In this document: positions 20,082 to 45,726 of the stretch, piece after piece
Position numbering within the stretch: position 1 is the stretch's first letter
Layout: the number at the start of each line of letters is the position of its first letter
Assembly (NCBI GenBank): GCA_017676145.1
Contig: GCA_017676145.1_3628.1
From: a phage
Length of the DNA stretch: 64,000 nucleotides
Reading direction: 5' to 3' (one strand)
Translations under genes and position numbers: made by a program
The notes under the pieces: generated by a model
The model's input: only the letters and a program-made list of their open reading frames with translations
Told to the model about the DNA's origin: nothing
Databases searched by the model: none

Positions 20082-20499
20082 TAAGTTCTTCTCTTTTCTT
20101 TTACCGAGTAATTCGGGTTTTCTGTTCTCTTCGGTTTGAAGGGGTATGGAGATACACCTGAGTGAACAGGGTGAACAACCGAACAGTTAGCTATGGCATT
20201 AGCATGGCGAAGCGGACGGGTGACGAAAGAGGGGCCGGAGGACACCAGTCACTGCCATATGGTATATGGGTGATAACCTGAAGAGTCTGAATAAGTGTTT
20301 AAGTACCAGTCAGAGGAAAAGGTGAATGGTAGCCGAAGGGGGAGGGGGGTTTCTTGTATCTTTAATTTGTATACTTTATATACACTTGTAAACCAATTCA
20401 ATTAGAATCTGTTTACCACACAAAGTGGATACAGGCAAATATTCCCTATTAAACTTGAATTATTTATAGAAAATACCACAACACCACTTAAGTCTTTGA

Positions 20500-20660
20500 T
20501 TTTACACACAAATCTTACAGATATTCAACCTCCATATTTAACATACCTGTAACATATCCCATACTCTACCTGCCTGATCAATTTCCCAAACTACATCCCC
20601 ATATTTTCCCTTCCTGTACTACCCCTGCCCCGCCGGGAGTCCCGTCATATCTGGCTTTCC
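20500..20660 (+). other. strongly strand-biased pyrimidine-rich (C+T) tract in non-coding hub
   Basis: About 160 nt with very few G on + strand (aacctccatatttaacatacctgtaacatatcccatactctacc...). Confidence 0.5.
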
Positions 20661-21044
20661 AGCAAATATCACACCCACAAATATCATCACCTGAAGAGTG
20701 ATTCCTCCCATAATCCACACCCTGCCTGAAGAGCGCTTCATACACCGCGTAAATTTTTTAATTGATCCCTCCCCGCCGCCGGAGAGGTTGGCTTTTCCCA
20801 CACAGGCCTGAAGAGTCAGCCAGAAATATCTGAAGGGTGTCCAGTTCTACCACGATTTTGACCTGACCTACAGGAGTGCTGCCCTGTCAGGAGCCGTAGC
20901 GACTGGAGTGCTGCCAGGCGGACGAAATGGGAATACTTCTCATTCTTATAACAATTCTCAAATATCGGGGCAGTGAGGCAAATTAATAGGCGAGGCCGCT
21001 CACACAGTGGCACAACATTTGCAGGCTATTTTGTGGGGGTGAAT

Positions 21045-21078
21045 GAGAATACCTATCATTGTGAGAATAGTTATCATT
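21045..21078 (+). repeat. tandem pair of 16-bp motif GAGAAYRNYTATCATT
   Basis: gagaatacctatcatt and gagaatagttatcatt 2 nt apart; same motif recurs at about 31924 and 32050. Confidence 0.55.
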
Positions 21079-21473
21079 ACGGGCAATTTAACATAATACC
21101 CATTATGCGCACCACTGTCGATACATACAGGGATTGATAACATGGGTTACTGTTTACGCATATAACAATTGTATTTCTTATTATTTGTGGGGGATATAGT
21201 TAGCAACCAATAGATTAGTTATTAACCTGCGGACTTCTGACCGTCTAGACGTCCAAACGCCCACACCACAAGGATTATACATACACTCCTGAATGTAAAC
21301 AGGTCCGAAAAAATGCTACCATACCAGTTTGTAAATTTTCCATGCAGCACTTGACAAAGAGGAGAAAAACTTGTCTGACACCTTATACACACCGGGCACC
21401 TTATACACTTTCGACACAATAACGACTGTTATTATTTCATGTTTCATTATTCACGTGCAGATTGTTCCTGCGT

Positions 21474-21535
21474 AGACTGTTTACGCCTGGATAGTTTGCA
21501 CCTGAATAGTTTACACCCTGACAGTTTACGCATAG
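21474..21535 (+). repeat. array of four AGTTTAC(G/A)C-type iterons spaced 14-15 bp
   Basis: ctgtttacgcc / tagtttgcacc / tagtttacacc / cagtttacgca in direct orientation. Confidence 0.55.
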
Positions 21536-21543
21536 ATGATAAG

Positions 21544-21562
21544 CCATGACATTCGTTTGCAT
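21544..21562 (+). repeat. 19-20 bp direct repeat copy 1 (gccatgacattcgtttgcat)
   Basis: Exact second copy at 21837..21855; the pair brackets iteron/palindrome-rich segment. Confidence 0.6.
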
Positions 21563-21594
21563 GATAACACCCTTGAGACGAGGGCTATGCTCCC

Positions 21595-21660
21595 GAGTTT
21601 AACAATTAACAAGATAACAATTGACAAGCTAACAGCCAACAAGCTGACAATTAACAGGTT
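21595..21660 (+). repeat. array of AACAATTAACAAG-like iterons
   Basis: taacaattaacaag ataacaattgacaag ctaacagccaacaag ctgacaattaacagg: four direct repeats. Confidence 0.5.
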
Positions 21661-21836
21661 AATAATATATGACATAATATAAAAGCAGGGCAACTATTAG
21701 CAGATCTATAGTTGCCTTGCTTATTATGTCATGATTAACTGAATACAAGGCAACTATGATCTGATTAATAGATTGCAGACAAACTATCACGGGGGTGATT
21801 GTTACTGCTTTTATATTATGTCGCGACTCCGTCGCG

Positions 21837-21855
21837 CCATGACATTCGTTTGCAT
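21837..21855 (+). repeat. 19-20 bp direct repeat copy 2 (gccatgacattcgtttgcat)
   Basis: Identical to 21544..21562. Confidence 0.6.
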
Positions 21856-22470
21856 AGTTGCCTTATTGTTACAGGTAAAATAATTACATTGTTAACTATT
21901 TCTTATCTTTCTCTTAGTCATCTAATGATTCCAGTCAGTATAGTTATGTGCAGTAAACATTAGACGACTAAAGATTTCTCTGATTATAGTAACCTATCGT
22001 GACAATTTCGGACTGTTTACGAAAAATGTTGACACCTGGGCAGGTTTATGTTATGCAGTTTGTACGAATAATTATTTTGTACAGGTATTGACTATTCCGT
22101 TATTCTGTGGTTGGAATAAATACTTTGCAGGCTATAGAATGGTGATCGTACGTGGATTCTGAGATCTGTCGGCTATAGTTACACCCGATTTTTCACGTAG
22201 GACGCGCTTTTTGGTTTGTGTAAGTGTATGACTTATAAGGGTTTTTAATTGTTGACAGTATACTGAAAATGTGCATCAGGTTAAATTTTGCGCAATAGCT
22301 GCATTACGTGCAATTTTGGGAGAGAAAACAGGTAAAAATAGCACCGCTACCACACAATGAAAGGTTATGCAATAGTTATTTTACATGTATATTTGTACAG
22401 TGTGCTGGATTAATGGCTCGTCAATTATTCCACTTGTCAGGTAGGGCCGTTTATGGTAGGAAAAGAGCAG

Positions 22471-23194: not shown

Positions 23195-23224
23195 CGGTTT
23201 TTATAGTTTTTTATATAACAGGCA

Positions 23225-23246
23225 CCCCCGGTGATTGTCTCCCCCC
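23225..23246 (-). promoter_or_regulatory. GC-rich conserved element GGGAGACAATCACCGGGGG (copy 1 of 3)
   Basis: - strand ggggggagacaatcaccggggg about 30 nt upstream of the -35; near-identical copies at 31886 and 32002 on + strand. Confidence 0.45.
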
Positions 23247-23280
23247 GTCGCCAGGTGCCGCCCGTAAAACAAGTATAACA

Positions 23281-23310
23281 AAAAACAGGACCATTGCAAG
23301 CCCTGTTTTA
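23281..23310 (-). terminator. putative intrinsic terminator (short stem)
   Basis: - strand acagg...cctgt stem followed by TTTTT, after stop of 23324..23515. Confidence 0.3.
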
Positions 23311-30790: not shown

Positions 30791-31189
30791 TTATTCGTGG
30801 GCACATGTCACAATGTGCTTTTTATAGCCCAGGCGGTCAGCAAGTGCCGCCAAAAACTCTTCTTCGTAGATCCAGCCGTCGGCAGTGATCCCCATAGCAT
30901 TTAATGCGCTCTCAAGTGCTGCGTTGGCTTTATCATAACCGTGACCGCTCGCCTTGCCGCCAGTATAGCCGTACTTATTGTTCTTGTTGTCGTGTATCCA
31001 AAAAACGCAGTAGTAAGTGTTCCCGCTGGCGGCGGCATAATACCGGATCTCAGCTACTTCGTGCAAATTATTGTCATCGTCCAGGCCCACCAGATTATAG
31101 GCCTTGTAAAATCCACGATCACGGCGGCAGTTCTTGACATCAGAAAAAGAAAAGTCCGCATTATCAAAATTAAAGGTGGTGGTTTTCAT
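30791..31189 (-). CDS. hypothetical protein (132 aa)
   Basis: Track ORF; gagagga SD. Confidence 0.5.
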   Translation of the reverse strand: MKTTTFNFDNADFSFSDVKNCRRDRGFYKAYNLVGLDDDNNLHEVAEIRYYAAASGNTYYCVFWIHDNKNNKYGYTGGKASGHGYDKANAALESALNAMGITADGWIYEEEFLAALADRLGYKKHIVTCAHE

Positions 31190-31253
31190 GATTTTATCCT
31201 CTCAGTGTCTTTTGTGCTTTTAGTGTATTTGGTGTCGGCCTATATGTCAATAC

Positions 31254-31451
31254 TTATTTTTTATTAAACCAGTGGTTGATCTGGCCTTTTGTCAGGGCGC
31301 AACGATTAAGCTGTTGCCGGGTATAGCTCTGACCGCGACGGAATTTATAAAGGCCTTGCCCGTTGTTGATGGTCACATCCACCTGGCAAATCATTTGATC
31401 GGTGACCACCTGGCGAGTGCTGCGACGTACTTTAATTCCGTAGGCGTTCAT
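31254..31451 (-). CDS. hypothetical basic protein (65 aa)
   Basis: Track ORF; gagagga SD. Confidence 0.45.
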   Translation of the reverse strand: MNAYGIKVRRSTRQVVTDQMICQVDVTINNGQGLYKFRRGQSYTRQQLNRCALTKGQINHWFNKK

Positions 31452-31487
31452 GATTTTTATCCTCTCTGTTAATTAGTGTGGTGTTGT

Positions 31488-31712
31488 TCACCTTGCGAGG
31501 ATAAGAATAACAAAAACTGTCCTAGCTGTCAACCACCAGTTAAAATTATTTTTTGGGTAGAATTCTCCAGCCGCCGCCCCTGCCAGGTTGACCATCATTT
31601 TTTCGTACTCTTCTTTATGTTCCAACGCTCCCGCCATAGCCTTTTCAACCAGGGCGATGGCCTCCGCGTTATTAATAGCTACATTTTCCAGGAGGATCCT
31701 ATTACCTTTCAT
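31488..31712 (-). CDS. hypothetical protein (74 aa) with C-terminal hydrophobic segment
   Basis: Track ORF; gaggagg SD. Confidence 0.5.
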   Translation of the reverse strand: MKGNRILLENVAINNAEAIALVEKAMAGALEHKEEYEKMMVNLAGAAAGEFYPKNNFNWWLTARTVFVILILAR

Positions 31713-31823
31713 TTTTGTACCTCCTCTTCAATTGTTACCTATCCTATAGCATAGGCCCACCAGGCTGGCCCCGCCAGGTTGCAGCGGTCAGCGCATCAGG
31801 TTAGAAAAATTTTTTGAAAAGTG

Positions 31824-31852
31824 TTGACAGCGGCCCCGCCAGGTGGCATAAT
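31824..31852 (+). promoter_or_regulatory. strong sigma70-like promoter on + strand inside the leftward block (TTGACA-17-CATAAT)
   Basis: ttgacagcggccccgccaggtggcataat; no ORF of 60 aa or more downstream on + strand; transcribes conserved GGGAGACAA / GAGAA-TATCATT elements. Confidence 0.5.
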
Positions 31853-31885
31853 ATACATATCGAAAGGACGGCAGGCACCGGTGAC

Positions 31886-31906
31886 GGGGGAGACAACCAC
31901 CGGGGA
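31886..31906 (+). promoter_or_regulatory. GC-rich conserved element GGGGGAGACAACCACCGGGG (copy 2 of 3)
   Basis: About 35 nt downstream of -10 of promoter 31824; followed by GAGAACGATTATCATT at about 31924. Confidence 0.45.
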
Positions 31907-31923
31907 TGGGCGCTGCATGAAAT

Positions 31924-31939
31924 GAGAACGATTATCATT
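31924..31939 (+). repeat. 16-bp motif GAGAACGATTATCATT
   Basis: Third of four copies of GAGAAYRNYTATCATT. Confidence 0.5.
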
Positions 31940-32001
31940 ATCGTCTAAAAATTTATGCAAAAACTTCTTGCTTTCTTTGTCCTGTGTGGTACTATAATAA
32001 C

Positions 32002-32020
32002 AAGCCGGGGCAGTAGGGGC
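32002..32020 (+). promoter_or_regulatory. GC-rich conserved element GGGAGACAATCACCGGGGG (copy 3 of 3)
   Basis: Preceded by TACTATAAT -10-like element; followed by GAGAATGATTATCATT at about 32050. Confidence 0.45.
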
Positions 32021-32049
32021 CGGGAGACAATCACCGGGGGTGCCCGTTA

Positions 32050-32065
32050 TTCTGCAAACGAGAAT
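32050..32065 (+). repeat. 16-bp motif GAGAATGATTATCATT
   Basis: Fourth copy of GAGAAYRNYTATCATT. Confidence 0.5.
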
Positions 32066-32696
32066 GATTATCATTCAAAATTCTAAATGAGAACTTTTCG
32101 CATTTCATAAATTTAGTTAGCATGCTAATTACCTACCGTGACAATTCTATATAAAATAATAACTCCTAAAATATTCCCATATAGAAATTTTAAAAATCCA
32201 TTTCTGAAAACGAAAAATCGATTTAGTCCCCAAAAATTTCAGGTCGAGCGCCGGAACGATTTCCAGAAAATCTGATTCAGAAAACGAAAAACAGATCGAG
32301 TACTGAGAGATTTATCGAGAAAAATTTTCAGAAAATCCAATCTTTGAAACGAAAAACAGATCGAGTACTGGGAAAGATGTATCAAAACCTATTGATAATA
32401 ATTAACTTATTGTTATAAAAGGTCAGAAGTAAGTTGGGAAAGTTCTGGTAGAAGGGTGAGAGTGTGTGCGGAAAATCTGGAACGGTGATTTGAAGTACGG
32501 TGCGAACGATAGGATGATCAGCACAGCTTATCGTGCCTGTCTTGAAAAATCCATTTTAGTTTTCGATCCATTTTCTGATTTTCTAAGGATTTCCAAATAT
32601 CTGCAAATATCTGATAAATAAGGGAAAATCCATTACATATTTTCCCTCATCGCCTAAAATTTTTATAATTTTAAAATAAATACTACCATAAATATC

Positions 32697-33341
32697 TTAA
32701 ATAAATTTCACCAATGTTATAGTCTCCTTATTATTTTTCAAATCATTCTCAAGGATAGTTATTGCACGTTTAATGGCGAACAGCCAAATCTCATCTTTGT
32801 TTTTAATAGCCTGAAGTTTCATCTCCTCAAGTTTCATTTCTTGCCACACCTTGTGTGCTGTCTGTGGATCATCGAAATGACCGCCATGAACAATTTTTCC
32901 ATCTCGATGACAATGCACGAGATACTTGTTTACATCTTTTCTAAGTGTCACACCCAAAGGTAAATCCCCTCGTGCTGCCTGTCTTATGCCAAATAGGGTG
33001 TTTATTTGTGGTGGAACAAACATGCATGTTTCTGGGGAGTATATTCTGTTTCCAGGGATTTTCAGATCTTTGTCAAGAGTGAACTTCTTAGCGTCTCTTT
33101 TCCACTCTTGTGTATCCATCCATTTCCAGAATTCTGAGAACAACCACCAATCTTCTACAACTTCACAACCTGTATGGTACTTTGAGTTATCGCCGTAGCA
33201 CCTCTGGAATAATGCTTTCCATGTAGCATAGTGGGGTTCTGGTACTCTCTTACCATTAACAGATTGGTACATTGGGACTTTGTCTTTTAAATCGTTTACT
33301 CCACGACCACATACTTTTCTGTCTTTAACAGGTATTCCCAT
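32697..33341 (-). CDS. putative homing endonuclease-like protein (degenerate HNH-like segment plus AP2-like DNA-binding segment)
   Basis: ATG at M18 of track ORF; LDKDLKIPGNRIYSPETC (HNH-like) and KYLVHCHRDGKIVHGGHFDDPQTAHKVWQE (AP2-like pattern); flanked by AT-rich repeat region. Confidence 0.35.
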   Translation of the reverse strand: MGIPVKDRKVCGRGVNDLKDKVPMYQSVNGKRVPEPHYATWKALFQRCYGDNSKYHTGCEVVEDWWLFSEFWKWMDTQEWKRDAKKFTLDKDLKIPGNRIYSPETCMFVPPQINTLFGIRQAARGDLPLGVTLRKDVNKYLVHCHRDGKIVHGGHFDDPQTAHKVWQEMKLEEMKLQAIKNKDEIWLFAIKRAITILENDLKNNKETITLVKFI

Positions 33342-33666
33342 CAATCCCACCTTTTCCTTTGTACATGCGTAGAGGTATAGTCTTTGTAACATTCCATCTC
33401 CCCAACCCTTCCCAGTTCCAATTGTGGGCGTGGTACCCAGTTATGCATGCACTGCTGGAGTGATCATAGGCATAGGAGAACGCTATGCGTAACAGATGAG
33501 GCCAGTCTTTCCACGGCTGTGGTCCGTAAGCCTTTCTCCAACACCGACACAAACTAAATGTCTCAAGAATAGGCAGGATAACAAATCCATACACCACCAC
33601 CAAGATGATCAGCGCAATGATTGTCAGGAATACATACCCTGCAGTTGAAATGATGATCTCTGTCAT
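33325..33666 (-). CDS. membrane protein (113 aa, N-terminal TM helix)
   Basis: Track ORF; ISTAGYVFLTIIALIILVVVYGFVILPI. Confidence 0.4.
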   Translation of the reverse strand: MTEIIISTAGYVFLTIIALIILVVVYGFVILPILETFSLCRCWRKAYGPQPWKDWPHLLRIAFSYAYDHSSSACITGYHAHNWNWEGLGRWNVTKTIPLRMYKGKGGIDGNTC

Positions 33667-42974: not shown

Positions 42975-43302
42975 CAATAGTTCAGGTAGGTCGTTAAGCT
43001 ACCCCGCACCATTACGTGCATAGCCATACAGTTTCCCGTATGGATCGGACTATCTCACTGCCTTGTCACCAAGGCACCTCTCATTTCGACCGCACTTGCT
43101 GGCCTACTCTACTCGCTTCTTCACCCCAAACTGTGTTGGAGCTATGCTTTCGATAGTCTCTGAACGTTCATCCTCTCGGATGCTTCGCTGCGGATTAGCA
43201 TATTGAGCTTTTACCATGGTTAGGTGTAAAAGTCAACTTAGCCTTCCCGTCAATTAAAGAGGTTTTCGACGTGCATCACTGCACGAAGCCACAATGTTAT
43301 TT
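42975..43302 (-). mobile_element. ORF-less group I intron interrupting DNA polymerase motif C
   Basis: 328 nt between H and DE codons of motif C; exon 1 ends in U, intron ends in G; P7-like pairing AGACUAU / AUAGUC present; in-frame stop 1 codon into intron. Confidence 0.55.
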
Positions 43303-45726
43303 ATGGTAATAAATAATCCGACGAACACCCTCATCATACCATCCACGCTTCACCAGCTGGTGGTGCATGAGGATTCCCACCAAGTCGCACAACGAGGCAC
43401 CGCCATTTTGCTGATATGCATTAAGCAAAGAGTGTTTAGAGCGGGTCCAAATGGCATGACCGTCAAAAGAGTAGATGAATTTCTTACCTGTTGCTTCCCA
43501 GAATTTCTCCAGATCCTCTTTACGCCCCTTAAGACCTGGGTTGGCATCCCAGAGAGCATCGATTACTCTCTGCCCCAGCTCTGGAGAGATATCCAGCATA
43601 TCTGCAACTTTATCTTTTTGTGCCCCGTACATAACCCCATACGTGACAGGCTTACCATCGTTACGAGACACCTCCCTGCCTGCTACTTTTGTATATGCCT
43701 CAGCATTGTTTTGGTGCGCATCTCCGTTACTTACAACATCATAGTACAGACCGTTGTCGAACTCAAAGGCACCCCAAGCCCCGATAAGCTGCTCTAAGTT
43801 GGACCCGTCAATACCGATCTCAAAGTATCCGGGAGGAACACCCCACAGACTACGCATCTCTTTACCCATAACCACTTTAGGAGATGGTTTAGGCATGTTT
43901 GCACAAATGCTGTGTTTCTGTCTGGAAGTGTTTGTTAATCCAGAACTTTTAGCAGGAAGCTTATGGTCAATCTTCAAACGTGGATGATTAAGAAGACCAG
44001 TATCAACCTTATCCTCCTTGATTGGATCAAGGACCGATCTACGGTTTCGCAAGGATAACCACAAGACGATATCTTTAGCCATCTCTCCGTTCAACTTTTC
44101 AAGATTCGGACATAGGTGTCCAAACGTATCTTTCAGTTGCGGAGAAGTAATAAGCGCTCTGGCTTTTCTACGTATCTTCCCAAACACTTCCTTTTTAATC
44201 CTTTCTGAGTTAGGGAAGCTTCGGAACTTGTGCACGGTTGTCTGAAACTTAGCATCAGTTTTGTTCCAGAAGTTTATAATTAGGTCACAATACTCTGACT
44301 CTAAAAGCTCGTCCATATATGCATATACTCGTGCATCAACATCAGCATCAGGCAGAGCTTTCTTCTTGCTGTCTTTAGTTACATCCTTAGTTCTCCACAT
44401 TGTTGGGAGCCAACCAGCACTAATCAGGTATCGCTTAATGTCGTCCTGATTGCTGATTTTCATAGGTATCTTGCAGTCAGGCATTCGCTTCTGCTGTAGG
44501 TCACTTATTGCCTGATCCATTAGCTCTTTAGGTAAAGGGTGTGGTGTAGAAGTTCCTTTGATATACCCCCTCAAGAAATCAGCCATCTTATCTGGGTCTT
44601 TACAGCCCATCTCTTCACACCATTTTATCCCCATTTTGCTGACATCCCCTGCAGAGGTAAATGCTCGCTTAGGAGGGGCTTTGAACTCTAAAGCGCTCAT
44701 GTCCACAGGATAGCCAAGCTTGTCTTTTAACCATTTCCAACCATTATTGGAGATTGTCCCATCCTGGTTAAACGGCTTTTCAGGGAACTTAGGCCGCTGA
44801 GACATTGATAACTCTTTTAAAGGAAGTTGTGGTTCAACACGATCAGCGATCTCTTTCATCCACGCATCGCAGCGGTCACGTAAAGCAATAGCCCCATCTA
44901 TGTCGAAATACACACCCTGTCGAGCCTGCAGCTCCATCAGGAAATGCTGCAGCATGCCTCGGCGTAATGCATTCTTCCAGGTAATCTTCTTGAATCCTTT
45001 AGGCTTCTCTTTGGCAGGGTCATACATAAAGTTCTGCATGTCAGATTTGCCGTAGAATACACCTTTTGATTCCGCTACCAACTCTTTCCAGAGCAACTCC
45101 TGGATGATAACGTCCTCGAACACACGATCCACATATTTCCACAGTGGAAGCTCACGCCAGTCATCGATTTGAACTTTCTGGTTACCAAGGGCATAGCCCC
45201 ATGCCATAAGGCCATGAGGCCCAACAGGTTGCATTTTCTTGGTAACTGGATTGAATACTGCGTCCGGACAACCTTTTGGCAAAGGGCGGTCAGGCCACAA
45301 GATTCGGCTCATAGCTAACGTATCAAACAGATTAACCTGGTGGTCGTTGATAGTTCCCATGCATTTAGGGTCACGGAACATATCAAAATGAATACCAGAT
45401 AATCTCTCCATCAGCATAAAGTCATAACTGTAGCAGTTATGGCAGTTCAAAGCTGTTGGTGACCAGTCGGAATTGCCTGTAAGCCAACCTTCCAACTCCG
45501 AAAAATCTGCTATGCGGACTTCAAAATCTTTATAAAGAGTTTTCTTTGCTAGAATAAAGTTCTTAGCCTTCTCTACATCCTCTTCAGAGTAGTGTGTGCG
45601 GTCATTTAGAGGAAGGAACAGCATAAAACGGTTCTTATTCAGCTCTTTAAACAAACCGCAGTGATAATAAAGATCTGGATCTTCCAGCAAGCCCGAGGCC
45701 TCCAGATCGAAAGACCACATACTCAT
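43303..45726 (-). CDS. DNA polymerase (family A, T7-like, with 3'-5' exonuclease domain), exon 1
   Basis: Exo I motif FDLEASG; motif A-like GIDGSNLEQ; motif B RNDGKPVTYGVMYGAQ; ORF terminates right after ...IIYYH, immediately before motif C acidic residues. Confidence 0.8.

Follow-up and report, generated by a model that had tools for sequence, protein, structure and literature searches.

Tandem promoters and leader hairpins in a gap without ORFs

The window, by which we mean the whole 64,000-nucleotide stretch of phage DNA that was analyzed, belongs to an rV5-like Vequintavirus and contains, at 31713-32696, a gap of about 1 kb without ORFs. Two tandem σ70 promoters in this gap, P1 and P2, are oriented against the surrounding leftward genes. 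P1 (31824-31852, + strand; TTGACA-17-CATAAT), which had already been pointed out in a preliminary description of this DNA, matches the consensus at 11/12 positions and has a TG at 31844-31845, giving an extended −10 element; transcription from P1 would start near 31859. Among 10 Vequintavirus genomes P1 is unchanged except for one −10 base. The unit 1 leader hairpin (31871-31916, + strand; MFE −20.1 kcal/mol, z −1.8) consists of an outer helix, GCAGGC/GCGCUGC, and an inner helix whose loop holds GGGAGACAACCACC. The second −10 element of the preliminary description (TACTATAAT, 31990-31998) was found together with a −35 box (TTGCTT, 31968-31973), and the resulting promoter P2 (31968-31998, + strand) can be read as TTGCTT-16-TACTAT with a TG, or with TATAAT at a spacing of 19. 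Both P2 boxes are kept in Vequintavirus, and other genera have a promoter at the equivalent place, Pb, to which P2 is homologous. The unit 2 leader hairpin (32008-32045, + strand; MFE −16.5 kcal/mol, z +0.9) is formed by GGGCA/UGCCC and CCGG/CCGG around GAGACAAUCA and is followed by a U-rich stretch (UUAUUCU). The proposed duplication of a promoter-leader unit is real, with a unit spacing of 134-136 nt; the coordinates first given for the second copy (32002-32020 and 32050-32065) were about 10-20 nt too low.

The GC element GGGAGACAAYCACCGGGG, which is the apical part of the GC-rich two-helix hairpin, occurs in exact copies at 31888-31905 (+ strand, unit 1), 32022-32039 (+ strand, unit 2) and 23226-23243 (− strand), as against 0.03 copies expected by chance; 0 of 100 shuffles reached three. 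The − strand copy, whose existence had also been noted, lies in unit 3 (23218-23299, − strand), where a promoter (TTGCAA-16-TATACT, 23299-23272) precedes a hairpin (23265-23218; MFE −23.3 kcal/mol, z −3.1) containing the third GGGAGACAATCACCGGGG. Outside Vequintavirus, unit 2 has an orthologue, termed unit B, and the other genera carry one unit only, unit 1 being a lineage-specific duplicate of unit 2. In phage AlexBoehm, units 1 and 2 have been fused through recombination between the repeats.

No + strand ORF of at least 60 aa lies 3′ of P1, as had been stated, the longest being 44, 43 and 34 aa. Coding on the + strand through the two GC elements was rejected by direct reading, since the frames differ between the copies. 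On the minus strand, rV5 ORF198 (gp193; 31796-32074) is a 92-codon open frame for which rV5 and some relatives carry an annotation, and if it were a gene the repeats would merely be coding sequence. We consider this extremely improbable. The ratio of synonymous to non-synonymous changes in this frame is 20:62, and other frames are as good; phage L069 has two in-frame stops and AlexBoehm a frameshift plus a stop. CM1 and typing phage 14 have no annotation of the frame, its ATG falls within the second of the palindromes described below, it has no Shine-Dalgarno sequence, and it is absent from other genera, though the DNA elements are kept there. ORF198 is thus a spurious gene. The annotation of the region differs from genome to genome. 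A Pfam search of the flanking small ORFs and of the 231-aa ORF at 32697-33392 revealed no domains, and the latter is therefore not called a homing endonuclease. A scan for tRNA and tmRNA genes found none.

Palindromes downstream of the leaders match the Fur operator

The leaders are followed by a palindromic motif, GAGAAYGATTATCATT, that we predict to be a Fur box, the canonical operator of the host regulator Fur. The sequence TGAGAAYGATTATCATT is found at 31923-31939 with 0 mismatches and at 32059-32075 with 1 mismatch, and when up to 3 mismatches are allowed it has 7 matches compared with 0.7 expected. For comparison with E. coli Fur we used the consensus in its 19-bp (GATAATGATAATCATTATC) and 7-1-7 (TGATAATNATTATCA) forms, and for scoring a matrix built only from the boxes of other phage genera, by which the classical Fur consensus itself scores 22.5 bits. 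Box 1 (AAATGAGAACGATTATCATTATC, 31920-31942) matches the consensus at 17/19 positions on the − strand and scores 26.1 bits. Box 2 (AAACGAGAATGATTATCATTCAA, 32056-32078; 15/19 positions, 26.7 bits) includes the 7-1-7 palindrome GAATGAT-T-ATCATTC and is 80-88% conserved in distant genera. Box 3 (AAATGAGAACTTTTCGCATTT, 32085-32105; 22.3 bits) overlaps a weak site on the minus strand that resembles a promoter (ATGAAA-17-TAGAAT, 32108-32080). One box therefore follows unit 1 and two follow unit 2. No other sites in the window match the E. coli Fur consensus as well as boxes 1 and 2; 4 sites in all have at most 4 mismatches, compared with 0.67 in shuffled sequence. No Fur box follows the hairpin of unit 3; the next element is a promoter (TTGACA-17-TAGCAT, 23194-23166), and then the leftward genes. 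Because unit 3 carries the hairpin without the box, hairpin and Fur box are separable.

Another strong Fur-like box (AAATGGGAATACTTCTCATTC, 20925-20945; 22.0 bits) lies in a 2.2 kb ORF-free region between convergent gene blocks, and two adjacent weaker boxes (GAATGAGAATACCTATCATTG and TTGTGAGAATAGTTATCATTA; 17.4 and 10.9 bits) lie at 21041-21079. The latter correspond to two further GAGAA-TATCATT motifs of the preliminary description, which are present, in weaker form, at 21044-21060 and 21062-21078; in phage navn, a box pair of this type is annotated only as ‘repeat_region’. The third box at 32085-32105 and the fourth strong box at 20925-20945 had been missed. Strong boxes number only 5 in the window and all fall within two large non-coding regions. 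In the genome of rV5 (137,947 bp), only 4 boxes reach 15 bits or more, and these too are all located in two large non-coding regions, the 20925 site included.

Searching bacterial DNA for the exact symmetrised motif AATGAGAATNATTCTCATT yielded 120 loci, whose flanking ORFs are enriched for iron-uptake genes. The 124 flanking ORFs included TonB-dependent receptors (8), iron-binding SBPs (8), FUR (7), ECF sigma factors of the FecI type (6-7), ZnuA (6), FTR1 (3) and FeoB (2). When the phage-box matrix was scanned on 27 kb of E. coli K-12 DNA, it gave 5 hits, all of them between fepA and fes, fepD and entS, or fepB and entC; these three intergenic regions together account for 726 of the 27,001 bp scanned. 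On this matrix the host ent/fep operators score 12-16 bits and the phage boxes 22-27. The occupancy of the phage boxes by Fur, as well as the transcription starts and 3′ ends, are predicted from sequence.

The preliminary description had offered a protein-binding leader as one reading of the unit. In this it was essentially right, the predicted ligand being host Fur; the part that did not stand is the phage early protein it had named as binder. A related possibility is that a phage-encoded regulator, for example of the rV5 gp153 type (‘transcriptional regulator’), shares the preference of Fur and binds the palindromes, host Fur being irrelevant. In all boxes of the family the fourth position of the 7-mer is G where the textbook consensus has T (TGAGAAT vs TGATAAT), a systematic departure that could reflect such a regulator. 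However, the same G-variant precedes iron-uptake genes in many bacterial phyla, the same box is found in dozens of unrelated IMG/VR phages without an obvious common regulator, and no FUR-family domain was found among the ORFs of the window (best 25 of 35 families), so that we hold a phage-encoded binder to be very unlikely.

We also considered whether the palindromes could act as RNA hairpins. This was rejected: the stems would be AU-only with loops of 1-3 nt, and between genera the copy number and spacing of the palindromes vary, as expected for protein sites.

Predicted structure of the leader RNA

A nested two-helix topology was predicted alike in 8 variants of the leader (z from +0.9 to −3.1). 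The hairpin loop GGAGACAA-CACC is conserved, and conservation is highest in the block formed by the loop sequence GAGACAAWCACCG. Folding of the + strand is better than that of the − strand by about 3.4 kcal/mol in both units. In each of five independent promoter contexts, namely units 1, 2 and 3, unit B, and a second copy in Mydovirus, the hairpin begins 8-20 nt past the −10 element; it follows P1 and P2 within about 10-20 nt. The predicted topology thus appears to be conserved, but is not statistically proven.

These properties raise the possibility, mentioned in the preliminary description, that the locus contains two (with unit 3, three) small-RNA genes of which the hairpin with its GGAGACAA-CACC loop is the product, the Fur boxes being regulatory or incidental. 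Besides the recurrent position of the hairpin, the conserved loop and the same topology in all variants, each RNA would have its own promoter, P1 being an 11/12 match with a TG and P2/Pb being kept across genera. In addition, the neighboring RNA A of other genera, which is located where unit 1 would be and is absent from the window, is structured, with one pair that covaries cleanly (GC to AU, 9:6 sequences). What does not agree with a small RNA gene is that 0 terminator-like sites were found in 31400-32900, that Rfam, searched at E up to 10 for the locus and at E up to 0.1 for five related loci (the window being scanned at the gathering threshold), gave no match to any of these loci, and that z is mostly insignificant, as in unit 2. 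Covariation across relatives, which had been proposed as a check, was examined with RNAalifold in 21 unit-B sequences: the GC part yielded no consensus helix, and a weak AUUCU/AGAAU hairpin was all that was predicted (consensus energy −2.8 kcal/mol). The power of this test is low because MAFFT misaligns the indel-rich 5′ half. Changes in the helices are mostly one-sided, and those within Vequintavirus are not cleanly compensatory. No target complementary at 3 mismatches or fewer was found within the window. In sum, the promoters stand and a two-helix topology is predicted; terminator, Rfam match and RNAalifold GC helix are lacking, and small-RNA genes seem to us an unlikely explanation of the locus. 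The same doubt applies to the roles such an RNA might have, whether as a trans-acting sRNA, as a protein-sequestering RNA or as a put/nut-like RNA modifying RNA polymerase.

The element had no match in E. coli genomes and is therefore not a captured host leader or sRNA. A riboswitch or intrinsic terminator was likewise rejected as a reading of the GC hairpin, which matches no family, lacks a canonical U-tract and has no + strand gene after it that it could regulate.

The architecture recurs in at least six genera and faces a candidate origin

The preliminary description had proposed the unit to be conserved, and the search of related genomes bore this out: the motifs were found in distant genera also, and the non-coding unit 3′ of the promoters is kept even across subfamilies. 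The order of promoter, hairpin, 1-5 Fur boxes, next promoter and three GATC iterons recurs in at least 6 genera (Seuna-, Mydo-, Certre-, Avuna-, Phapecocta- and Plateaulakevirus), and the junction sequence GTGCCCGYYATTCTGCAAATGAGAAT is retained between genera. Mydovirus-like contigs have a second promoter-hairpin-box unit on the other strand, in which the Fur box is kept.

The same box was found in dozens of unrelated IMG/VR phages, where it clusters in non-coding, repeat-rich DNA and can form arrays of at least 6. The box is about 20-fold commoner in IMG/VR phages than composition-matched controls; its flanking genes encode terminase, DnaB, ArdC or unknown products, with no iron genes among them. 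Some of these boxes adjoin DnaA-box clusters, an enrichment that is real in raw counts but of which about half comes from one abundant contig family, with only some 5-6 independent lineages counted.

About 100 nt beyond the boxes begin three iteron-like direct repeats of 55-65 nt (32180-32373), whose core GAAAACGAAAAACAGATCGAGTAC contains GATC, and the tandem promoters face this array. Three homologous repeats are found at the equivalent place in 5-6 genera (Seuna-, Mydo-, Certre-, Avuna- and Plateaulakevirus). From the iterons, the GATC sites and the position, this region is probably a replication origin or control region. An ORF-free region with tandem promoters facing GATC iterons resembles transcription-activated, iteron-bearing origins such as lambda ori, the T7 primary origin with its tandem promoters, T4 oriF/oriG and P1 oriR with its GATC repeats. 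GC skew was uninformative for mapping the origin, as it mirrors gene orientation and the direction of transcription; the authors of the rV5 genome reached the same conclusion on GC skew and could not locate the origin. The present work thus flags a candidate for the long-sought origin region of rV5-like phages.

Possible roles of the Fur boxes

The locus forms the core of a control region that is conserved in rV5-like phages and contains no ORFs. The presence of Fur boxes there suggests that sensing or manipulation of host iron regulation is part of the biology of this virulent phage. The reading that we prefer, to which we give an even chance of being correct, is that iron-bound Fur sits between the tandem promoters and gates non-coding transcription into the probable origin. 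In iron-replete cells, Fe2+-Fur dimers would occupy the boxes, which relative to one promoter lie at about +60 to +100 and relative to the following one at about −45 to −90. There Fur would act as a roadblock or occluder, so that rightward non-coding transcription would be held to a short 5′ hairpin RNA. Release of Fur, either in low iron or by titration as phage DNA builds up, would allow transcription into the iteron region, and the read-through would also be antisense to incoming leftward transcription. The hairpin would most simply be a 5′-terminal stabilizer or an attenuator of the leaders. Against gating speaks the position of the boxes, which are clear of the −35 and −10 elements of P1 and P2, unlike the geometry of classical Fur repression. 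To our knowledge, roadblocking is not a well-established mode of action of Fur, nor do we know of a role for Fur as an origin factor.

The main alternative is a Fur sponge, in which the boxes act in trans and the 4-5 operators on each genome, multiplied by replication to hundreds of copies, titrate the limited Fur pool. It is possible, if somewhat doubtful, and we have similar reservations about its presumed effect, namely that host iron uptake and release from storage are de-repressed and feed the iron-dependent ribonucleotide reductases of the phage (NrdAB, NrdDG). A sponge would be consistent with the higher scores of the phage boxes relative to the host ent/fep operators, with the variable number of boxes (1 to 5 per genus and at least 6 in the arrays of unrelated phages), with their location outside promoter hexamers, and with the presence in the window of genes for NrdB, an intron-split NrdD, NrdG and glutaredoxin. 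The boxes of the convergent region (20925 and 21041) have no visible promoter or hairpin and therefore fit a decoy role better. On the other hand, a sponge leaves the strict promoter-hairpin-box order and the retained junction across genera unexplained; 4-5 sites multiplied by a burst of a few hundred give a total no more than comparable with the Fur pool, and any benefit needs ongoing host transcription and translation within a short latent period. The sponge and the gating model are not mutually exclusive.

High-affinity operators, as predicted here, on a high-copy replicon recall the decoy concept of FURTA and of datA-type sites, and the predicted consequence, de-repression of the Fur regulon, would be the same as in FURTA. 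That assay is said to go back to Stojiljkovic and colleagues in 1994, and multicopy Fur boxes reportedly de-repress fhuF::lacZ in E. coli. Unlike the phage boxes, FURTA is a laboratory artefact of plasmids, and we know of no natural, selected Fur decoy in a phage.

Compared with the enterobacterial Fur operators of fepA-fes, fepB-entC and iucA, the phage boxes have the same 19-bp/7-1-7 palindrome but are carried by a virulent phage, have no iron gene in their vicinity, lie downstream of or between tandem promoters rather than over −35 and −10 elements, score higher, and systematically have the TGAGAAT half-site. The association of a Fur box with a predicted non-coding transcript is shared with the RyhB and PrrF small RNAs, to which the phage leaders have no sequence similarity and no Rfam hits; whereas RyhB has its box over the promoter, an Hfq site and an intrinsic terminator, the phage box is inside or after the leader and no terminator follows. 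A predicted stem-loop in the first 50-60 nt downstream of strong promoters, present in several copies per genome, is reminiscent of HK022 put, lambda nut and ompA-type 5′ stabilizers, but there is no sequence or Rfam similarity to them and the phage leader hairpin is without significant covariation.

Fur boxes are textbook elements, which on phage DNA are known only for the cargo genes of temperate phages; in Stx1 phages, the stx1 promoter is a phage-borne Fur site controlling cargo. In the literature searched, Fur boxes in phages were found only as the sitABCD sites on lambdoid prophages (PMC6969025), which resemble those described here in being host Fur sites borne on phage DNA. Both sitABCD and stx1 differ from the present case in that they concern an adjacent cargo gene, a temperate phage and classical promoter overlap, whereas here the boxes lie in non-coding control DNA. 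The same search found no description of this control region, nothing relevant on the literal motif, no report of Fur binding to the boxes, and no infection transcriptome for Vequintavirinae.

More broadly, we tentatively propose that near-ideal Fur operators have been clustered on purpose in the non-coding origin or control regions of virulent phages from many unrelated lineages, for iron-coupled transcription and replication or as a Fur sponge; if true, this would constitute a previously unrecognized phage-host interface. Within a whole subfamily of virulent coliphages of relevance to therapy, and among their relatives, no other non-coding sequence is as conserved as the predicted near-ideal operators. 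If Fur binds them, phage development or the iron metabolism of the infected host would be wired to iron availability, which would bear on how effective phages are in an infected host short of iron. In rV5-like phages these operators are joined to a predicted hairpin RNA that is conserved and lies close to the promoter, and other genera add a second, previously undescribed structured RNA.

A duplicated non-coding unit within the leftward gene block

BLAST assigned the window to the genus Vequintavirus, the rV5-like myoviruses of E. coli; among 204 matching phage records, SYGMH1 was 97.6% identical to it over 31000-33500. By GC skew, genes run rightward to ~19 kb, leftward from ~19 to 60 kb and rightward beyond. 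Inside the leftward block, a gap of ~1 kb without credible ORFs (31713-32696) contains a duplicated unit, whose copies, units 1 and 2 (31871-31916 and 32008-32045, both +), are spaced by 134-136 nt. The near-consensus promoter and the repeated pair of elements reported in the preliminary description were recovered. P1 (31824-31852, +; TTGACA-17-CATAAT with TG before the -10 box, 11/12) is the top promoter-like site of the region. The GC-rich element GGGAGACAAYCACCGGGG has three exact copies (31888 and 32022 on the + strand, 23226 on the - strand) against 0.03 expected, and the AT-rich motif TGAGAAYGATTATCATT occurs at 31923 and 32059 and, less well matched, at 21044 and 21062; the latter two are the additional GAGAA-TATCATT motifs that had been placed in the hub. 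At up to three mismatches, TGAGAAYGATTATCATT gave seven matches versus 0.7 expected by chance. The second copies do exist, but had been placed 10-20 nt too low; the other coordinates were correct.

In rV5, a minus-strand gene, ORF198 (gp193), is annotated across both units (window 31796-32074). Among 10 Vequintavirus genomes its frame accumulated 20 synonymous versus 62 non-synonymous codon changes, other frames being no worse; it contains two stops in one genome and a frameshift in phage AlexBoehm, and ORF calls at the locus differ between annotated genomes. On these grounds ORF198 was rejected as a coding sequence, and the duplicated-unit region is non-coding.

Identity of the AT-rich motif

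On the minus strand, positions 31924-31942 read GATAATGATAATCGTTCTC, which agrees at 17/19 positions with GATAATGATAATCATTATC, the classical Fur consensus of E. coli; box 2 (32056-32078) matches at 15/19, and box 1 (31920-31942) and box 2 are the best two in the 64 kb window. The box consensus from other phage genera, AAATGAGAATGATTCTCATTT, reads as a 7-1-7 palindrome, TGAGAAT-N-ATTCTCA, bordered by AA/TT. When the palindrome AATGAGAATNATTCTCATT was scanned exactly in one genome per bacterial species, at least 120 loci were found. A Pfam search of the 124 ORFs starting within 250 nt of it, many of them spurious, returned, among the loci listed, TonB-dependent receptor plug (8), iron-type solute-binding proteins (8), the FUR family (7), ECF sigma factors (6-7), ZnuA (6), FTR1 (3), FeoB (2) and PepSY_TM (2). 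This gene set is the Fur regulon, in some taxa that of Zur/Mur.

For E. coli K-12 605-632 kb, a 21-mer weight matrix trained only on boxes from other phage genera gave five matches of at least 9 bits, each of them between fepA and fes, fepD and entS, or fepB and entC. These intergenic regions contain classical Fur-controlled promoters and together account for 726 of the 27,001 bp scanned. The textbook Fur consensus scored 22.5 bits, within the phage-box range. The host ent/fep sites reached 12-16 bits and the phage boxes 22-27, which places the latter nearer the Fur ideal than the host's own operators. Judged by sequence, the AT-rich motif qualifies as a Fur box, and the boxes are predicted Fur operators.

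Distribution of the boxes

With the phage-box matrix, five strong sites were found in the window, at 20925 (22.0 bits), 21041 (17.4 bits), 31920 (box 1, 26.1 bits), 32056 (box 2, 26.7 bits) and 32085 (box 3, 32085-32105, 22.3 bits), compared with 0.25 sites at a 13-bit threshold in the shuffled window. The earlier motif list had overlooked box 3 and the strong box at 20925-20945. The whole of rV5 (137,947 bp) had just four sites of at least 15 bits: three at the unit locus and one in the 2.6 kb without ORFs that separate ORF163 from ORF164; the remaining ~130 kb had no site of at least 15 bits.

The window's other Fur-like boxes (20925, 21041 and 21059) lie in ~20100-22300, a 2.2 kb stretch between convergent gene blocks without a credible ORF. 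Its rV5 equivalent, 104013-106618, is the box that the rV5 paper labels 'non-coding'. Because several relatives' GenBank records start or end inside it, this stretch may mark a genome terminus or packaging site. In Vequintavirus, a weak promoter-like site pointing leftward (ATGAAA-17-TAGAAT) overlaps box 3, which would be classical Fur geometry; the site is not conserved in Cronobacter phage GAP31.

Conservation of the architecture across genera

The interval containing unit 2 and its boxes (32021-32105) was 80-88% identical in phages whose flanks could not be aligned, bearing out the expected conservation in related genomes: Cronobacter GAP31, Salmonella PVP-SE1, E. coli 4MG and Av-05, Proteus Mydo, Pectobacterium and Enterobacter Certrevirus, the phAPEC8-like phages of another subfamily (Stephanstirmvirinae) and, in part, Aeromonas 2L372X. 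Read by inspection, the loci of other genera follow one shared order of ten elements: a small + strand gene, absent in Vequintavirus; promoter Pa; a conserved 'RNA A' of ~100 nt; the sequence ATTTGTAAAGAnnTGTAAAG; promoter Pb; the unit B hairpin, orthologous to unit 2, whose junction GTGCCCGYYATTCTGCAAATGAGAAT is conserved; between one and five Fur boxes; a promoter-like site (TTGACA), the third in the series; three iterons (GAAAAAATACGATCT ... GAAAANTCGATCGAGAACC) that each contain GATC; and the next leftward gene. The small gene (60-87 aa), directly upstream of the control region, is the sole + strand gene in the leftward block of these genera (GAP31, L002:2069-2260, +; related loci L110:1067-1258, L111:1073-1258, L113:1083-1265, L114:1077-1271 and L116:939-1202).

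RNA A (CAGAAGAGAAAACGCCACCCCACGGCGAAAAGGCGGGGCUAACGUACC...GGUCGGAAGGUGGAUCGCCGGUAG; L002:2313-2405 in GAP31) was also found in L107, L108-L113, L115-L116, L237 and L253; in Seuna-, Mydo-, Certre-, Avuna- and Phapecoctavirus it lies downstream of a promoter of its own, immediately before unit B. Its RNAalifold consensus (-18.4 kcal/mol) includes a single clean compensatory pair, GC to AU in 9:6 sequences, and a hairpin of variable length, which excludes a coding role for RNA A. It had no Rfam match and does not occur in the window; in Vequintavirus its place belongs to unit 1, which is a duplicate of unit B that has diverged. From the -35 box of P1 to box 3, Vequintavirus DNA is far better conserved than that immediately upstream. 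In AlexBoehm (L281, against window 31905-32021), recombination between the two GGGAGACAAYCACCGGGG repeats has removed 117 nt and fused the units into a single hybrid, so the duplication can be dispensed with and is prone to recombination. In Mydovirus-like contigs, a further promoter-hairpin-Fur-box unit lies on the opposite strand at a distance of ~7 kb; its counterpart in the window is unit 3 (23218-23299, -), where the box has been lost.

A predicted promoter-proximal hairpin

All three copies of GGGAGACAAYCACCGGGG are flanked on either side by complementary GC-rich arms that start 8-20 nt past a -10 hexamer: P1 for unit 1 (+), TTGCTT-16-TACTAT for unit 2 (+) and TTGCAA-16-TATACT for unit 3 (-). 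GGGAGACAAYCACCGGGG is the apex of a predicted promoter-proximal hairpin. RNAfold gave a nested two-helix topology common to the three window copies and five orthologues, with the conserved GGAGACAA(N)CACC in or adjoining the apical loop, and the + strand folded ~3.4 kcal/mol better than the - strand. In a predicted outer helix, seen by inspection, the first transcribed bases pair with those directly ahead of Fur box number one (AUAGCGGG with CCCGCUAU, for instance). Stabilities were not exceptional (z of -1.8, +0.9 and -3.1 for units 1, 2 and 3; -2.6 to +0.2 for orthologues), RNAalifold found no consensus helix in the GC part of 21 sequences, and one outer-helix pair varies between A-U, G-U and G-C but also A-C. 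RNA structure of the leader is for these reasons plausible rather than demonstrated. Neither an intrinsic terminator nor an Rfam family match was found at the locus. A true small-RNA function of the hairpin is a second, unlikely alternative to the gating proposed below.

The early promoters have GC-rich spacers, repeatedly with the Dcm site CCWGG (e.g. gcggccccgCCAGGtgg; 31839-31843, 31775-31779 and ~23183 on the - strand; also Pa/Pb of GAP31 and of related loci L107-L116). The 'CCAGGTGG box' described as shared between promoters is this spacer element. The P1 spacer recurs almost unchanged 65 nt upstream (31767-31783).

Iterons and a proposed role for the boxes

Positions 32180-32373 comprise three iteron-like repeats containing GATC sites (core CAGATCGAGTACTG in the window, GAAAANTCGATCGAGAACC in other genera), and their number and position are conserved between subfamilies. 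For the replication origin of rV5-like phages, which is unmapped, they are the best candidate; the rV5 paper noted only a 'non-coding' box, and its origin search was unsuccessful. A 231-aa ORF adjoining the iterons (32697-33392, -) was present in only 3 of the 204 matching records; in most relatives the match extends over no more than 70% of 31000-33500. No Pfam domain was detected in the ORF, its SYGMH1 annotation as 'ATP-dependent Clp protease' looks wrong, and it is probably an accessory insertion.

Relative to the strong, conserved promoters, which face outward, the Fur boxes lie at ~+60 to +100, and they are ~25-90 nt ahead of the promoter that follows; the ORF-free box region ends in the GATC-bearing iterons, and the predicted transcripts encode nothing. 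We give about an even chance to the proposal that the boxes gate rightward non-coding transcription into the iteron region. Bound Fe2+-Fur would limit this transcription to a short hairpin leader; at low iron or upon titration, Fur would leave the boxes and transcription would enter the iterons, and read-through would also oppose incoming leftward transcription. The iteron region would probably be an origin, analogous to those that transcription activates in lambda, T7, T4 and ColE1-type replicons.

The main alternative, compatible with gating though itself on the unlikely side, is that boxes on replicating phage DNA act as a Fur sponge, much as in the laboratory Fur titration assay. Host iron uptake would then be de-repressed, supplying the phage's iron-dependent reductases. 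The window encodes iron-dependent NrdB, intron-split NrdD, NrdG and glutaredoxin; no FUR-family domain was among the best 25 of 35 Pfam families for its 124 ORFs. A group I intron (43025-43312, -, in the leftward block; Rfam RF00028, 75.2 bits, E 2.8e-17) most likely interrupts the gene for anaerobic ribonucleotide reductase, because two window ORFs match NRDD.

The temperate-phage cargo gene stx1 has a phage-borne Fur box. Fur boxes on a temperate phage likewise control the cargo genes sitABCD (PMC6969025). Whereas such known boxes serve cargo genes, those described here sit in a control region of virulent phages; in the literature searched, we found no description of Fur boxes in such regions, of the leader hairpin or of RNA A.

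Fur boxes in unrelated phages

The exact 17-mer GAGAATGATTATCATTC occurred in 103 IMG/VR stretches, versus 12 (5 contigs) for the reversed sequence and 4 for a composition-matched shuffled palindrome. Its surroundings are long, repeat-rich and non-coding: 72 of 93 distinct contexts lay outside any open frame of at least 120 codons, and 33 of these 72 had two or more boxes within 300 nt, in arrays of up to six. Adjoining genes encoded terminase, DnaB, ArdC or unknown products and included no iron genes, so these boxes are not cargo-gene operators. Perfect DnaA boxes (TTATCCACA) within 500 bp of Fur boxes showed a 14-fold raw enrichment (28 in 84 kb versus 14 in 595 kb), a count inflated by one abundant contig family and representing ~5-6 independent lineages (L013, L015, L043, L106 and the L050 family). 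In these unrelated contigs, a Fur box lies 30-480 bp from TTATCCACA clusters in non-coding, AT-rich or repeat-rich DNA (L043:127-290, L015:6130-6197, L106:360-440, L013:6620-6720 and L050:7186-7420), and the stretches look origin-like. The same boxes are arranged differently in a 347-kb jumbo phage contig from IMG/VR (L008:1245-1400), where a 20-nt inverted repeat, ACACCACTCCTGCCTGCTAT ... ATAGCAGACAGGAGTAGTGT, encloses two of them.
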